DNA from: Sorangium cellulosum
Lineage (GTDB): Bacteria; Myxococcota_A; Polyangia; Polyangiales; Polyangiaceae
Direction: 5' to 3'
Length of the DNA: 40,090 nucleotides
Assembly (NCBI GenBank): GCA_020720045.1
Contig: DYPH01000046.1
Coordinates: forward strand, 1-40,090
Each line of letters starts with the position of its first letter. The first letter of the stretch is position 1. A model generated the notes under the pieces. The model did no database searches and was not told the DNA's origin. It saw only the letters and a program-made list of their open reading frames with translations. Below are positions 219 through 30,107 of this stretch, piece after piece. A program made the translations under genes and the position numbers.

Positions 219-3200
219 CTAGCGAAGCGACGGGATCGGGAGGAAGGCGTCCAGGAAGCGTTCCGGGCGGGCGATGCGCTGGGCAGACACCGCAAGCTCG
301 GCGCGCTCGACGCCGGCCCAGTCGCCGGAACGCCATGCGATCGCGCGTTCGATGGCGAAGCGGTAGCTTCCGAGCTTCGCCTCATCGAGCGTTCCGAGGA
401 TCTGTTCCGCGAAGGAATTCTCACTCCCGTCATTTCGCCCCACGGCACGTGCGTACGCGAAGGCCGCCGCAAGGCCGGTCGCCCAGGGGACATTCTCGCC
501 GCGGAGAGCGGCGATCGCGGCGAGAACGGTCGCGTCGTCGCCAACAGCAAGGCCGACCCGACCGCGCGTTTCCGCAGCAAGAATGCGGTTCGGCCGAAGC
601 TTATCAAGGCCGGACCCTTCGTAGCGGGCATCGGTCTCGCGGAGGAGCGCCTGCGCACTTGAAACGTCCCCCTCGTAGAGGAAGGAGATGCAGCGACTCC
701 ATGCACTCTGCAAGTGTTGGAGGTGGAATCCGTCGAGGGCCCACGAAGCGGTCGCTTCTTCGGCGTCGCGACGGGCACCGACCGGGTCGTCCCGGAAAAG
801 GTGGACGAGGTTCGGCACCCCGACGCGGAGTGCGGTCTCGGCGAACTTGTCACCGATGGCGCGCGCGGCCAAACGCGCACGCTCAACTGCATCTTCCAAG
901 CGAGCGAATTCGCCGAAATATCCGAAGGCCCAAAGCTCATTCTGGCGAACGGTACCGATCTCCCAGTGGGTGCCGACGTTGTGCTTCTCGAGTTCGAGGA
1001 GCGCCGGCACGGCACGCAGTGCGACCTGATCCCAGTGGCCGCGGACCGCCTGCGACATGCATCGAGCGGTGCTGATCCACGCCGCCGAGTAGGCGTCACC
1101 GTGTTGGGCGACGAGGCGATCGGCCTCGTCAAGGAGCCCGTCGCCGTCGCGTTCGCCTTCTTCGCCCCGCGTGGAGAGGAAGATCGCTTCCATGCCGAGG
1201 GCGCGGATCAGGCGCTTCGGTTCGCCGGCATCGAGCGAGAGCCGAAGATTCTCTGCATGATACACAAATCCGCGAAGTTGATCGGACATCAGGAAACCGC
1301 ACGCCGCGGCCCAGGCGGTATCGATCCGCTCAAGGGCACCGAGTTCAATCGCTTCTTCCGTGCGCAGTCGATACGCCCGCCCACGCAGCGCGAGGCGGCC
1401 GCGGGAGAAGAGAAACATCGGCACCTTGAGAAAGGGGCGCACAAGCGGAAGACCGACGTCGTCGAGGGCCCCATTGAGCTGGCGCTCCCCGTCATCAATG
1501 TATCCTGCACGCAAAAGCGTTTCTGCGGCGCGGCGCCGGAGAACACGCCCACGACGGCCTCCATGCACGGTGGCGGCGCGGAGGAAGAGGTCGGCCGCTT
1601 CGCGAGCGCGGCCGCCGTTTGCAAGCGCAGTGGCGAGAGAGACAAGCAATTCCGCCGTGGAACGCCCTTCGGCCTCCGCACGCCGCAGCAGGTATCGATA
1701 GGCGTTCGCGGCGCGGTCGAAGGCGAGCGCACGCTCGGCCCCCTCCGCGAGCCGAATCGCGAGCGGCCGGGCCCGCGCGTGATCCTCGGCGCCGGCGAAA
1801 TGGAAAAAAAGCGCATCGTCGTCGACCGGTTCGCGGCTTGCGAACGCTTCGCCGAAGCGACGGTGGAGGCGTCGGCGGGCTTCGTCGTCAAGGCGACTCC
1901 GCACCGCCTCGCGAACTTTGCCGTGGTAGGGCTCGACGGGGTCGGTCGCGCGAAGACCATCGAGCTTCACCAGACGCCCGAGTTTCATGCGCTTTACGTG
2001 CTTGAAGGCAATCGACGGATCGACGCCAGCCACCTGGGCGATGAGCGGTTGCGGGAGCGGCTTAATCGCCAGGGAAAGCGCTTCAAGCATGCGGCGCGCA
2101 TCGTCTTCGAGAGAGTCGACGCGGGCGAGCAAGGCTTCGACGAGGCGGTGCTCGCCGGAGGTTCCGGCGGTGGCGAGGCGCGACGAACGGAGGAGTTCGT
2201 CCAGCAAAAACGGGTGTCCGGAGGAAGCCTCGACGATGGCGTCGACGTCGGCGTCGGGATGGGCGCCCCGCGCGACTGCCGCCTCGACGAAGGCCAAGCA
2301 TTCGGCGCGTGGGAGCGGGCCCACGACGACGACCTCGGGAGATACATCTGCAAAAACGCGAGAATCTGGGCGCTCACGTGCAGACACGACGACGAAGAGG
2401 CCGATCGGAGTTGGTCGGCGGAGCAGGGCAGCGAGGAGGCCGCGGCTGTCGTCGTCGGCCCATTGGAAGTCATCAAAAGCGAGCACGACGGGCACTTCAC
2501 GGGCGATCCGGGCGAAGAGCTCTCGGGCCTGGGCAAACGCCTCACGACGGCGTTCGATAGGGTCGACGGGCCTCGTCGGTTCTTCGAGATCGATGCGTTC
2601 CAAGAGCGGAACAAGCACCGGAAAGCTCTCGGCGAGCGTCCAGGCAGAGCCGGTCAAAAAGCGCGCGACGTCTTCGGCGACGAACCGGTCGAGCCATTGT
2701 GCGATCTGCGCAAAGATCCGATCAAAGGCATTGAAGGGGACCGCTTCATCGGGATGACAGCGACCTGCGAGAACGAGTGGTGCCGGGCGACGCGCCGAAA
2801 GCTGGTCGCGAAACATATTGAGAATATGGGACTTTCCGATCCCTGACTCCCCCTCAAGCAGCACGATCGGCGTCGGCTGGCGCTCGCCGCGTTCACTACG
2901 CGGCGGTGGCGATGAGGGGCGGTGAGAATCGGCATCGAGCTCGCTTGTCGACGTCGCTGCCGGTGGAAGCACATTCCGAAGAATGCGCTCGCGCTCCGCG
3001 CGCACCGCGCCGAAAGCTGTGTAGAGCACATCCATCTCCCGCTGGCGACCGACGAAGATCTCCTCATCGCTCGGCGCGATGGGGGCGCTCCCTAGCGATG
3101 GCGGGAACAGACTGAGCCCCGCCTCGAGAACGGTGAGGATCGATTCGGCATCGGGCCGGGCCTCCGGCGTCGGCGAAAGCAGAGCCATCGCGAGATCGAT

Positions 3201-4118
3201 AAGGTCGTCGGGGGCGTCGGCGGCGAACTCGACCCGTAGGCGGGGCTTGCCTCGACGCTTGGCGGCGAGGACGTCTTGAAGCGTCCCCTCGAAGGGGTCG
3301 CGCCCAGCAAGGACTTGGTAGAGCAAGATCCCGACGGCGTAGAAATCGGACGCGGCCGTGGCGCGACGCCCGGCGGCGTGCTCGGGGGCGATCGTGAGCG
3401 GAGTGCCAGCCATCCGCCCTTGGCGGCGGGCGGGGTCGCTGTCAACAGCAATGCCGAAGTCGATCAGGACGAGGCGATCGCGGTCGGTTACGAGCACATT
3501 GCTCGATTTGACGTCCCGATGGATCTTCCCGGCGTCGTGGAGATACCGAAGCGCTCGAACCAATTGAATGAGGAGGCGGCGCAGGCGCTTCGGGTCGCAA
3601 CGTTCGGCGAAAGGTACCGGGTGAAAAAGTTCGACGGGGCTCGGCCGCCCGTGCTCGTCTGCGCGACTAAGGGGCGGAAGGGCGAGCGTTTGACTGCCAC
3701 AAATGAGATTTGAAAAAGAGTCGGGGCGAGTGGGAGTGTTTCGCCCCGACTGAAAGCGATCTTCCGGCGGCGAGGTGCGGGCGATCGCCTGCAAGAACTC
3801 TTCGCCACGGACGAGCTCCATGGTGAAGTACCAAAGGTCATTTTCGACGAAAAGCTCTCCGAGAGAAACGAGATTTTCGTGGGCCAGGTCCTGGCAACGC
3901 CTAAATTCGCGTTTGAATTCCTCGAGAGCTCCCGCACTACGACCTGCGAGGGTCTTTAGTGCGACCGCCCCGCCAGTCTCGGCGTCATGGGCTTCGTAGA
4001 CAGTCCCCATGCCCCCGGCGCCGAGGCGACGGAGAATGCGGAACCGCCCGAGCGTCCGTGGCGAGGAAGAATCGGCTCCGAAGAACCGCGGATCGAACTC
4101 GGATGACTCCATGTTCAT
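219..4118 (-). CDS. Ser/Thr protein kinase fused to a STAND/AAA_16 NTPase and a TPR-like C-terminal region (PknK-like), about 1300 aa
   Basis: ORF 219..4262 on the minus strand. Hanks kinase motifs are present (GAGGMGTVYEA, HRDVKSSNVLV, DFGIA, APE). Downstream lies a Walker A (GESGIGKS) and a Walker B-like hhhhDDFQWADD. A long Ala/Leu/Arg-rich helical repeat region follows. The first in-frame ATG that leaves about 27 aa before the kinase core is at 4118 (MNMESSEF). The ORF stays open upstream to 4262. Confidence 0.85.
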   Translation of the reverse strand: MNMESSEFDPRFFGADSSSPRTLGRFRILRRLGAGGMGTVYEAHDAETGGAVALKTLAGRSAGALEEFKREFRRCQDLAHENLVSLGELFVENDLWYFTMELVRGEEFLQAIARTSPPEDRFQSGRNTPTRPDSFSNLICGSQTLALPPLSRADEHGRPSPVELFHPVPFAERCDPKRLRRLLIQLVRALRYLHDAGKIHRDVKSSNVLVTDRDRLVLIDFGIAVDSDPARRQGRMAGTPLTIAPEHAAGRRATAASDFYAVGILLYQVLAGRDPFEGTLQDVLAAKRRGKPRLRVEFAADAPDDLIDLAMALLSPTPEARPDAESILTVLEAGLSLFPPSLGSAPIAPSDEEIFVGRQREMDVLYTAFGAVRAERERILRNVLPPAATSTSELDADSHRPSSPPPRSERGERQPTPIVLLEGESGIGKSHILNMFRDQLSARRPAPLVLAGRCHPDEAVPFNAFDRIFAQIAQWLDRFVAEDVARFLTGSAWTLAESFPVLVPLLERIDLEEPTRPVDPIERRREAFAQARELFARIAREVPVVLAFDDFQWADDDSRGLLAALLRRPTPIGLFVVVSARERPDSRVFADVSPEVVVVGPLPRAECLAFVEAAVARGAHPDADVDAIVEASSGHPFLLDELLRSSRLATAGTSGEHRLVEALLARVDSLEDDARRMLEALSLAIKPLPQPLIAQVAGVDPSIAFKHVKRMKLGRLVKLDGLRATDPVEPYHGKVREAVRSRLDDEARRRLHRRFGEAFASREPVDDDALFFHFAGAEDHARARPLAIRLAEGAERALAFDRAANAYRYLLRRAEAEGRSTAELLVSLATALANGGRAREAADLFLRAATVHGGRRGRVLRRRAAETLLRAGYIDDGERQLNGALDDVGLPLVRPFLKVPMFLFSRGRLALRGRAYRLRTEEAIELGALERIDTAWAAACGFLMSDQLRGFVYHAENLRLSLDAGEPKRLIRALGMEAIFLSTRGEEGERDGDGLLDEADRLVAQHGDAYSAAWISTARCMSQAVRGHWDQVALRAVPALLELEKHNVGTHWEIGTVRQNELWAFGYFGEFARLEDAVERARLAARAIGDKFAETALRVGVPNLVHLFRDDPVGARRDAEEATASWALDGFHLQHLQSAWSRCISFLYEGDVSSAQALLRETDARYEGSGLDKLRPNRILAAETRGRVGLAVGDDATVLAAIAALRGENVPWATGLAAAFAYARAVGRNDGSENSFAEQILGTLDEAKLGSYRFAIERAIAWRSGDWAGVERAELAVSAQRIARPERFLDAFLPIPSLR

Positions 4119-4153
4119 GGGCGTTCCGATGACTCCATGTTCATGAGCATTCC
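4102..4153. repeat. 26-bp tandem direct duplication (24/26 identical) spanning the kinase start codon region
   Basis: gatgactccatgttcatgggcgttcc (4102-4127) is followed directly by gatgactccatgttcatgagcattcc (4128-4153). This is read directly from the sequence. Confidence 0.85.
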
Positions 4154-4277
4154 TAGGTCGGTCGACGTCATCGGGAGAGCTTGGCGCGCCCCCCCCTCGG
4201 CATCGACCGCAAAGCACCAAGATGTTCGGCTGACTTGCCCAAGGGCGTGGCGACAGCGCCACGATTCAACCGGAAGG

Positions 4278-4967
4278 GTGAGTTTACACCAAAAATATTT
4301 TGCGATAGCTGAAATAAACGGACCGCTCGCAGGACTCCCCTGTGAAGCCGATGAATTCCCCCTCACTGCTGCTCCTTCCAGCGCGTGCCACCGCCCCGCC
4401 GTCGGCCGAGCCAACCGCGGTAGCCCCCATGGCGTTGGCGAATCGGTACACGCGGTAGTCGCCCTCCGTCCACTGCTTCGCGCAGTCGTCGCAAAGACCC
4501 TCGGCCGCCCGCTCGCCGATTCCTTCGTCGACGAAGCGTTGCAAGAGGCGATGACGGAAGTCCTCGCTGCCCTCCCCTCGCGCCGCGGCGGCGACGATGA
4601 CAGCCGTGCGCTGCGGAGTTTCGTCGTCGCTATCGCCGCGAATTGCTCCCGAAACGCCATCCGAGGCTTCCAGCGCCGCCGCGCCGAGAGCCCCCTCGAC
4701 GAGCCGAGCAGCGACCCTACTCTCGGTGCACTTGTCGGCCCCCCCTTGGGCGAGGCACTGGAAGCGCGCTCCGACCTGCGCGCAATCCAGGAACGGATCG
4801 CTCAGCTCCCCGAGGGGCAACGCAGAGCATTCATTGGTTTTTTTCTCGAAGAGAAGAGCTACGAAACGCTCGCAGCCGAGTTCGCCGTCCCCATTGGGAC
4901 GGTCGCCACCTGGATCTTTCGCGCAAAGAGCGCGGTCGCGTCCGTTGCGCCGAAGGACCATCGATGA
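4278..4967 (+). CDS. ECF (group IV) sigma-70 family RNA polymerase sigma factor; start uncertain
   Basis: Frame of ORF 4137..4967. A region 2-like segment (HAVVALRPLLRAVVAKTLGRPLADSFVDEALQEAMTEVLAAL ... ALRSFVVAIAANCSRNAIR) and a region 4 HTH (LPEGQRRAFIGFFLEEKSYETLAAEFAVPIGTVATWIFRAKSAV) are present. No canonical in-frame start lies within about 30 codons of region 2. GTG 4278 and ATG 4137 are the only upstream options. The stop overlaps the next ATG (ATGA). Confidence 0.7.
   Translation: MSLHQKYFAIAEINGPLAGLPCEADEFPLTAAPSSACHRPAVGRANRGSPHGVGESVHAVVALRPLLRAVVAKTLGRPLADSFVDEALQEAMTEVLAALPSRRGGDDDSRALRSFVVAIAANCSRNAIRGFQRRRAESPLDEPSSDPTLGALVGPPLGEALEARSDLRAIQERIAQLPEGQRRAFIGFFLEEKSYETLAAEFAVPIGTVATWIFRAKSAVASVAPKDHR
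4282..4320 (+). promoter_or_regulatory. AT-rich island in the kinase/ECF divergent intergenic region; candidate promoter for the ECF operon
   Basis: tttacaccaaaaatattttgcgatagctgaaataaacgg in a roughly 70% GC background. TTTACA is a 5/6 match to a -35 hexamer. No convincing -10 element was found. Confidence 0.3.
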
Positions 4968-5431
4968 AAGCGCCCCTGCCCCACCTGTTTTCCGGCGAAC
5001 ACCTTTCCGAGTTCGGCCTCTCCGTCGCTGCCGATGGCGAAGTCACCCACCTCAGCGCGGAAGCGCAGGAGCACCTCGCGCGCTGCCCGAGCTGCGAGCT
5101 TCAGGTCGCTACCAAAGCGCTCGAAGTGCTCGAATTACCTACAGACGTACTTGCGAACGCGGCGCTGCCACCCTTCCAACGATCCCCGTCGGCGCTGCGC
5201 GCGCTCGTCCGCCCGATCTTTGCCGCATTTGCCATCGGCGGCCTTGGACTCGCTTTGCGCGTTGCGACCCTCGACCGCGCCGCGCTCCGCGAGACGGCGC
5301 GAACCCTTCGCGCCTTTGCCCATGCGGCCCCGAGCGGTCAGCCGCTCTTGTCGCTCTTCGTCGCCGTTTGCGCCACGGCGCTCGCGATCGCCATCATTCG
5401 TCGTTTGCCCGCCCCCCAGGAGTCCCGATGA
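4964..5431 (+). CDS. Anti-sigma factor, zinc-finger (ZAS-like, HxxxCxxC) N-terminal domain with one TM helix, 155 aa
   Basis: ATG 4964 overlaps the sigma stop. Motif EHLARCPSCE is present. Hydrophobic stretches IFAAFAIGGLGLALRVA and LLSLFVAVCATALAIAIIRRL are present. Its position directly after the ECF sigma supports the call. Confidence 0.7.
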   Translation: MKAPLPHLFSGEHLSEFGLSVAADGEVTHLSAEAQEHLARCPSCELQVATKALEVLELPTDVLANAALPPFQRSPSALRALVRPIFAAFAIGGLGLALRVATLDRAALRETARTLRAFAHAAPSGQPLLSLFVAVCATALAIAIIRRLPAPQESR

Positions 5432-28652: not shown

Positions 28653-30107
28653 TCACTCCGCAGGTTGTGCGGCCGGCTCCTCATGGGCGTCTTCGTCGTG
28701 GCCATGGGCGTCGTCGTGAGACGCATGGCTGGGATCCCAGTGGGGATCTGCTTCCGGGAGAGTCGCCTTCACTTCCGCGATTGCAATCATCGGAATCCAC
28801 CGAATGAAGAGCAGGAACAGCGTGAAGAAGAGGCCGAGCGTACCGAAGTAGATGAAGATGTCGATGAGCGTCGGGCGGAAGTAGCCCCAGCTCGACGGAA
28901 GGAAGTCGTGGAAGAGGGACGTCACAATGATGACGAAACGCTCAAACCACATTCCGATGTTGACGAGGATCGACACCACGAAGCTGACGGCGATGTTGTT
29001 GCGGAGCTTCTTCGACCAATAAAGCTGCGGGCTGATGACGTTGCAGCTAACCATGATCCAGTAGGCCCACGCGAACGGCCCGCTTGCACGGTTGTGGATG
29101 AAGACGTGCCGCTCGAAATCGTTGCCCGAGTAGTAGGCGATGAAGAATTCCATCGCGTAGGCGTACCCGACGAGTGATCCGGTCAAGAGGATGATTTTAT
29201 TCATCAACTCGAGATGCTTCTGGGTCACGAGGCTCTTCATGCCGTACACCGCGCGGGTGATGAGCATGAGCGTCATGACCATCGCGAAGCCGGAGAAGAT
29301 GGCGCCAGCGACGAAGTACGGGGGGAAGATCGTCGTGTGCCAGCCCGGGATGACGGAGGTCGCGAAGTCGAAGGAAACGACCGAGTGCACCGAAAGCACG
29401 AGCGGAGTCGAGAGGCCTGCGAGGAGCAGGTAGGCACGCTCGTAGTGCTGCCAGTGCCGGTTTGAAGAGCGCCAACCGAGGGCGAGGGCTCCGTAGACAA
29501 GGCGGCGGACTTTCGTCTTCGCCCGGTCGCGGAAGGTGGCGAGGTCAGGGATGAGCCCGACGTACCAGAACAGGAGCGACACGGTGAAGTAGGTCGAAAC
29601 TGCGAAGACGTCCCAAAGGAGCGGGCTCTTGAAGTTCGGCCAGAGCGCCATCGAGTTCGGGAGCGGCGGCATATAGTAGGCGTACCAAATGCGCCCAACG
29701 TGAATGCCGGGGAAGATCAGTGCGCAGATAACCGCAAAGATCGTCATCGCTTCCGCGAATCGATTGATGGCCGTTCGCCACTTCTGACGGAAGAGGAAGA
29801 GGACGGCCGAGATCAGCGTTCCTGCGTGGCCGATGCCGATCCACCAAACGAAGTTGGTGATATCCCAGGCCCAATAAACGGGGGAATTGTTTCCCCAAAC
29901 GCCGATACCCGTCCAGATCAGGTAGCCGATGGCGGCGCCGAGGATTCCGGTAAAGTTGACGGCGATCAGGAAGCCGATCCACCAGCCACGCGGAGCCTTC
30001 GTTTCGGTGACGACCGCGACCGTTTCGGTGATCGACTTGAAGGTCGTCCCCTCGGCAACGAGCGAAACTTCGCCGAGTTCCTTAATAGGGAGGTTGTGCG
30101 AACTCAT
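28653..30107 (-). CDS. actC: Alternative complex III subunit ActC (NrfD/PsrC-like quinol-interacting membrane subunit)
   Basis: 484 aa polytopic membrane protein. NrfD family pattern. Its ATG shares 1 nt with the actB stop (TGATG). Confidence 0.9.

Follow-up and report, generated by a model that had tools for sequence, protein, structure and literature searches.

The stretch of DNA analysed here (hereafter the window), 40,090 nucleotides of contig DYPH01000046.1 from Sorangium cellulosum, encodes on its minus strand a Ser/Thr protein kinase of 1299 aa (219..4118) with Pkinase and AAA_16 domains and a long C-terminal region, delimited by Pfam matches, gene calls and the N-termini of its orthologues. 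The start of the kinase gene lies within a 26-bp tandem duplication (4102-4153) of its own translation-initiation region, and the upstream copy opens a small upstream open reading frame (uORF; 4115..4144, minus strand) of nine codons, which specifies MNMESSERP followed by TGA and ends on the kinase start codon. The two copies and all 30 nt of the uORF are preserved in four lineages, and comparison of the loci places the duplication before the split of these lineages. We give a probability of roughly one half to the reading in which the uORF is carried on the kinase mRNA, is translated and has the kinase coupled to it by termination-reinitiation. It would then be a mechanistically ordinary ATGA-coupled uORF, a known arrangement, unusual in the one respect that it arose by copying of the start of the very gene it precedes.

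Anatomy and origin of the duplicated initiation region

Tandem Repeats Finder returned 4102-4153 as the top-scoring tandem repeat of the window (period 26, 2.0 copies, 92% matches, score 90), and a second repeat search yielded the identical pair of units. The two units agree at 24 of 26 positions, whereas tandem matches of at least 24/26 with period 26 are expected by chance only about 1e-7 times in the window; the 26-bp tandem duplication reported in the preliminary description of this DNA is thus borne out. The 18-mer core of the repeat, CATGAACATGGAGTCATC, occurs exactly twice in the 40 kb and in none of 100 shuffles. Since this core is found in the window at the two copies alone, a dispersed repeat or mobile element was ruled out. 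A second, imperfect tandem repeat that also contains CATG is located at 28682-28728 (period 21, 2.2 copies, 81% matches).

The upstream copy, GGAATGCTCATGAACATGGAGTCATC (4128..4153, read from 4153 to 4128 on the minus strand), is defined by both repeat searches and the 18-mer count and is present in all related loci, where it begins GGAACGCTC. The downstream copy, GGAACGCCCATGAACATGGAGTCATC (4102..4127, read from 4127 to 4102 on the minus strand), defined by the repeat searches and the 18-mer count, holds the true kinase start. On the minus strand the uORF reads AGGAA(4154-4150)-TGCTC-ATG(4144) AAC ATG GAG TCA TCG GAA CGC CCA TGA(4117-4115), in a frame that differs from the kinase frame. The stop codon and the start codon of the kinase (4118-4116) overlap as ATGA, an arrangement kept in all 11 loci compared below. 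The kinase N-terminus is MNMESSEFDP, compared with MNMESSERP for the uORF peptide, so that every sequence element of the earlier claim, an MNMESSERP uORF overlapping as ATGA a kinase start that reads MNMESSEF, proved correct. The Shine-Dalgarno (SD)-like element that had been assigned to the uORF, AGGAA (4150..4154, minus strand), is likewise present 5-6 nt before the ATG and reads AGGAAC in the relatives, but it is a weak SD of 4 bp (-4.2 kcal/mol against a generic anti-SD). Its duplicate before the kinase ATG, GGAA (4124..4127, minus strand), is one base weaker (CGGAA vs AGGAA). In the lineage of the window, a C-to-T change at 4149 creates an extra in-frame ATG at 4150, which is without usable SD spacing. 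The description of catgttcatg as a palindromic core has to be amended, because the reverse complement of this sequence is catgaacatg and only each CATG alone is palindromic. The antisense (plus) strand of the repeat carries, at 4103-4146, two mirror mini-ORFs, MTPCSWAFR and MTPCS, each followed by a stop codon and also linked through ATGA, the frame from ATG4103 to TGA4132 overlapping ATG4129.

These features can be accounted for by a simple scenario. A single-copy ancestor, ...CCTAGGAACGCCC-ATG-AAC-ATG-GAG-TCA-TCC-GAG..., would have duplicated the 26 nt GGAACGCCCATGAACATGGAGTCATC, and the copied unit would have comprised the SD-like GGAA and, beyond a 5-nt spacer, the ATG together with the initial 5 2/3 codons of the kinase. 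A ribosome starting at the first ATG would then read the CC-ATG-A of the second copy as CCA-TGA. Because the period is of the form 3n+2 and the start codon precedes an A, the Arg-Pro-stop ending and the ATGA overlap follow automatically, and we infer that neither is an independent design feature. Furthermore, a duplication of this kind is self-healing because the last copy is always in frame with the kinase; the kinase protein is indeed unaltered by it. [quoted passage not shown]

Age and conservation of the upstream copy

The comparison covered 11 loci, namely the window and ten further loci encoding an orthologous kinase. The latter derive from a Myxococcales metagenome-assembled genome (JAAFHJ01; L003), five different JGI metagenomes (L015, L016, L018, L019 and L029), Logan assemblies of two SRA runs (L017 and L021) and two ENA SPAdes assemblies (L022 and L023). 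Four lineages were defined by the DNA of the initial 990 nt of the kinase gene, across which they are mutually ~86-93% identical: lineage A consists of the window and L029; lineage B (L003, L015, L021, L022 and L023) is ~93% identical to A; and lineages C (L016-L018) and D (L019) are each ~86% identical to A. All 11 loci, representing at least ten independent assemblies, hold exactly two repeat copies with the same junction, and no copy-number polymorphism of the repeat was observed among them. L029, an independent JGI contig, agrees with the window at every base of the entire region, and this holds for the homopolymers too. The preliminary description had proposed that copy number be compared at orthologous loci, and the answer, two copies in every locus and all four lineages, refutes its suggestion of a recent duplication or an assembly artefact, given that the lineages are ~14% divergent in DNA.

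Substitutions specific to individual lineages are found 7-20 nt from the repeat on either side, indicating that the two-copy state was inherited rather than recently exchanged. Concerted evolution or gene conversion as the cause of the similarity between the copies was ruled out at the sites where they differ. The T/C difference between them (at -28 vs -2 relative to the kinase start) is fixed in every lineage, and kinase codon 6 has become ACC (Thr) in one of the lineages and CCC (Pro) in a different one, against an unchanging TCG in the upstream copy. Residue 6 of the kinase (4101-4103) is thus Ser, Thr or Pro depending on the lineage, through first-position changes only and between invariant flanking codons.

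Relatives with a single copy or an intermediate state were not found in the protein database, the genome scan or the metagenome scan. The protein database holds no relatives of the kinase between ~37% and ~90% identity, a search with the N-terminal 160 aa of the kinase recovered distant kinase domains only, and the genome and metagenome scans each contributed close relatives only. In one more divergent relative (L020 1914-4076; Logan SRR16768027) the kinase is represented by its C-terminal 720 aa alone, and this part adjoins FUR-family and GATase genes instead of the sigma factor gene; either the copy is truncated or rearranged, or the contig is chimeric.

In an alignment of the four lineages spanning -125 to +990 (1115 nt), the uORF is variable at 0 of 30 positions, and the longest invariant run of the entire alignment, from -30 to +14 (45 nt; the runner-up measures 23 nt), covers it. 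A single column out of 26 varies in the upstream copy, at 4149, where the lineage of the window has the C-to-T change, and a single one out of 26 in the downstream copy, corresponding to kinase codon 6 (TCC/ACC/CCC). By comparison, 53% of the third-codon positions of the kinase are variable (171/324; 25 and 14 of 324 for first and second positions, respectively), as are 16% (14/88) of the remaining intergenic columns. Measured against the synonymous-site yardstick, the conservation of the upstream copy has a P of ~1e-10, and such low variation relative to kinase third positions indicates that this copy is constrained and not decaying. Function as a coupled leader ORF would be a plausible fit to this conservation.

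Proposed translational coupling and its alternatives

The spacing geometry is identical at the two initiation sites, the upstream SD being one base longer (AGGA vs GGA). In a thermodynamic model of the segment from -130 to +80, with arbitrary transcript ends, the cost of opening is 6.3 kcal/mol at the initiation region of the uORF, compared with 11.3 kcal/mol at that of the kinase, so that the uORF site is predicted to be the more accessible of the two. A ribosome footprint exceeds the 26 nt that separate the two starts, so the sites would compete and could not be occupied together. Under the coupling reading, most ribosomes would load at the uORF start, translate the nine codons, terminate on the ATGA and reinitiate on the kinase ATG, that is, by classical termination-reinitiation coupling, probably complemented by some direct initiation. 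Selection would have kept the upstream copy intact afterwards, and the uORF would act as a constitutive setter of the kinase translation rate and not as a sensor. The same genome uses ATGA overlaps among the neighbouring sigma factor, 155-aa and DUF8173 genes, which we count in favour of coupling. The idea of a uORF-kinase fusion through a -1 slip at C_CCA_UGA has no support.

There are known counterparts. Experiments in S. meliloti have shown that ATGA-overlapping uORFs act by translational coupling, and nearly 10% of the uORFs predicted in that bacterium have ATGA-type overlaps, examples being uORFs 1, 14 and 16 and the 4-aa glnK uORF (PMC13285730). The leader ORF of E. coli iraD was likewise demonstrated experimentally to work by translational coupling (PMC5574718). 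In common with these uORFs, the one described here is a short 5'-leader ORF that has an SD and an ATG to itself, its stop overlaps the main start as ATGA, and the start codons are close to each other (26 nt in our case); termination-reinitiation is expected in all of them, and the upstream site would compete with the main one or occlude it. By its sequence, the kinase uORF shows the features of a coupled uORF, being a conserved short ORF on the same strand with an SD-like element and a stop/start overlap. It differs from the S. meliloti and iraD cases in that it copies the initiation region of the main gene, so that the first 7 residues of its leader peptide are also those of the protein, and in that its translation and coupling are predictions and no regulator such as CsrA has been identified. 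A tandem repeat at the 5' end of a gene with a period that is not a multiple of three is also reminiscent of phase-variable contingency loci. Unlike such loci, the kinase gene has two copies only, with a constant copy number among the 11 loci, and each copy brings a start codon, so that a change in copy number would not switch the gene off.

If the coupling is real, the locus would provide a clean natural example of the birth of a bacterial uORF in one mutational step, in which duplication of an ATGA start with a period of 3n+2 at once yields a leader ORF with stop/start overlap. It would also be a simple model for the share of reinitiation in setting the output of a signalling kinase. The current understanding of translational control is left unchanged by the kinase uORF.

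Several observations weigh against coupling. Both SD-like elements are weak, at -4.2 kcal/mol for the uORF and ~-3.5 kcal/mol for the kinase; the GGAG of the upstream copy, 14 nt before the kinase ATG, reaches -5.9 kcal/mol but at a long spacing. The ATGA overlap is by itself no evidence of function, because the antisense strand of the repeat shows one too, and the antisense ATGA-linked mini-ORFs are pure by-products of the repeat. For the leader (4080-4250, minus strand), the predicted fold has no greater stability than the folds of shuffled sequences (z = -0.40). Compared with the conserved intergenic background instead of synonymous sites, the excess conservation of the upstream copy is modest (P = 0.0055 for 0/30 and ~0.06 for at most 1/26), and the regions were chosen post hoc. 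Synonymous and non-synonymous positions of the uORF are all invariant, and because the synonymous ones do not vary either, conservation cannot tell constraint on peptide, RNA and DNA apart. There are just four lineages and a single-copy relative was not found, hence no natural before/after comparison. Finally, the uORF may lie outside the kinase mRNA altogether. As regards the RNA, covariation lends no support to the minimum-energy hairpin, in which lineage C disrupts one stem pair and improves another, and Rfam gave no match at E <= 1 in 3900-4600. The leader thus does not qualify as a known structured RNA such as a riboswitch or attenuator RNA.

Alternatively, the upstream copy may not be a start site and may persist as a silent relic, or as a DNA element (operator or promoter) in a constrained divergent control region, an explanation that we regard as possible but doubtful. 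The weak SDs at both sites and the equal invariance of synonymous and non-synonymous uORF positions suit it, as does the conservation of the intergenic region, which is far higher than that of synonymous sites (14/88 vs 171/324 variable) and above which the upstream copy does not clearly stand out. Nevertheless, the SD, the ATG, the open frame and the ATGA stop are intact in all lineages, and direct repeats spaced at 26 bp are out of helical phase for a dimeric binder. In a promoter variant of this explanation, both copies read GGAAY-N15-GTC in the direction of the kinase, loosely resembling the -35 and -10 elements recognized by extracytoplasmic function (ECF) sigma factors, and a nearly leaderless mRNA would start just before ATG 4118. 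The two copies are the sole loose ECF-like matches in a scan of 4090-4360 for GGAAY-N14-18-(CGT/GTC/GTT), but this pattern recurs at ~0.5 per kb per strand across the G+C-rich window, and the C of the -35 element is replaced by T in the window. Moreover, the spacer of 15 nt from AAC to GTC is short, typical ECF promoter spacers being ~1-2 nt longer. A scan for promoters of the sigma-70 type returned no site in 3900-4700, which also speaks against a promoter at this position.

An alternative that accepts translation of the uORF is that it serves as an arresting or attenuating leader. Release of peptidyl-tRNA(Pro) at its Glu-Arg-Pro-UGA end would be slow, and the paused ribosome would cover the kinase ATG and SD and throttle the kinase, possibly in a condition-dependent manner. 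Terminal prolines are common in arrest peptides, and TnaC in particular ends R23-P24-UGA (PMC8450073); in the uORF as in TnaC, a ribosome at the stop would sit over a control site located downstream. In the uORF, unlike TnaC, the Arg-Pro-UGA ending results automatically from the duplication, through reading of the spacer ACGCCC-ATGA one base out of frame. The peptide has 9 residues compared with 24, no counterpart of the Trp and Asp sensor residues and no evident Rho-dependent attenuator. As the structured part of TnaC spans residues 11-21 (PMC8450073), the uORF peptide, which shares with TnaC the C-terminal Pro and the UGA but has neither the length to reach the exit-tunnel constriction nor any TnaC sensor residue, is far too short for a TnaC-like sensor. 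The interior of the uORF, beyond its start and stop, is invariant in the four lineages, which favours this reading, but synonymous-site invariance speaks equally for a constraint on nucleic acid. Closely spaced upstream and main ribosome-binding sites can lower the main ORF by occlusion (PMC13285730). On balance, it seems unlikely that such a throttle, with ribosomes carrying MNMESSERP pausing at Arg-Pro-UGA on the kinase start, was recruited and kept by selection. If it were, kinase output would be set by the efficiency of termination and reinitiation, possibly in response to the status of release factor 2 or prolyl-tRNA or to stress, and the Ser/Thr kinase that the throttle would tune forms a pair with an ECF sigma factor.

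The comparison of the loci places the kinase start at ATG 4118. The protein matches PF00069 (Pkinase; 138.7 bits) and PF13191 (AAA_16; 69.3 bits), both above the cut-offs, and is a Hanks-type Ser/Thr kinase with an AAA_16 (STAND-like) region. Initiation further upstream, at GTG 4262 or at an in-frame start between about -78 and -99, would make the duplicated ATGs internal, as the preliminary description had allowed for, and is very improbable. In the window the frame of the kinase stays open upstream as far as -150; however, stops interrupt it at -117 and -108 in lineages C and D. The homopolymer in the leader (C-run 4189-4196 of the window, G8 on the kinase strand) varies in length, with G8 in A, G7 in B and TG6 in both C and D. 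Such indels of 1-2 nt mark the stretch as non-coding and, together with the stops, rule out GTG 4262, the start that a mechanical choice of the upstream codon would give. Some in-frame ATG, GTG or TTG does exist between -78 and -102 in each lineage, and three of the five substitutions between -75 and -1 fall at third positions of the kinase frame, yet the candidate starts vary in position and codon among lineages and have no SD. Furthermore, a 26-nt duplication within the coding region would cause a frameshift. ATG 4118 is the start in every kinase gene call, and a public call (GCA_974332095.1, CDCMHI010000097.1) begins exactly there. Consistently, the N-termini of the orthologues all read MNMES[S/T/P]EFDPRFFGA, and with this start the glycine loop is already 32 residues from the N-terminus, the median among 126 homologues being 21. 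For annotation, the lesson is that the kinase start is provided by the second repeat copy and not by the first ATG. Lastly, spurious expansion of a single copy by assembly or sequencing is refuted: nothing was found in its favour, although the window departs from its relatives at two homopolymers, and against it stand the two copies in 11 loci from at least ten independent samples and several assemblers, contig L029, identical in every base including those homopolymers, and single short reads that span the 52-bp array.

The divergent sigma factor gene and the intergenic region

A gene for a sigma factor is transcribed divergently from the kinase gene, with genes for proteins of 155 aa and 403 aa, in this order, downstream of it. 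According to the gene calls of relatives and to Pfam and TIGR profiles, the sigma gene extends over 4351..4967 on the plus strand and encodes 205 aa. The product is an ECF (group 4) sigma-70 factor: the 205-aa relative matches TIGR02937 with 49.7 bits (cut-off 42.9), Sigma70_r4_2 scores 49.1 bits, and region 2 is detected below threshold only. The three genes form an operon with ATGA junctions at 4964-4967 and 5428-5431 (plus strand). The 155-aa protein has no family match and could be an anti-sigma factor; the 403-aa protein is assigned to DUF8173 (precomputed Pfam).

It had also been proposed that the plus-strand ATGs of the repeat (4137 and 4143) open the long sigma reading frame. An ORF of 276 aa at 4137-4967 does exist and corresponds to the public gene call for the lineage of the window, but the relatives use a start equivalent to ATG 4351, another 214 nt downstream. 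The gene is called as 205 aa in lineages B and C, with the start MNSPSLLLLPARATAPPSAEPTAVAPHGVGESVH (MNSPSLLLL...) at the equivalent of this ATG. The window and L029 have C5 at 4424-4428 compared with C6 in lineages B and C, and the shorter run puts the first 26 sigma codons out of frame with regions 2-4. Since the independent contig L029 shows the same state, the 1-nt difference is probably real. The only in-frame starts before region 2 in the window are ATG 4137, ATG 4143 and GTG 4278; the sigma gene of this lineage may be a pseudogene, may start at one of these codons or may require frameshifting. That the sigma reading frame is linked to the repeat is thus a by-product of the indel in the C-run and not a shared feature of the locus, and the 276-aa call that reaches into the repeat is an annotation consequence of a 1-nt indel.

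The divergent regulatory region between the kinase and sigma genes occupies 4119..4350, as defined by the alignment of the lineages and by composition. It contains a 20-nt block (4203-4222; CTTGGTGCTTTGCGGTCGA...) that is invariant in the four lineages and an AT-rich island at ~4285-4320 where the local G+C falls to ~52%. Both are likely promoter or operator positions, and no sigma-70 consensus was found there. An inverted repeat at 4247-4262, GTGGCG-CTGT-CGCCAC on the kinase strand, is partly conserved in lineage C and could be an operator or a hairpin.

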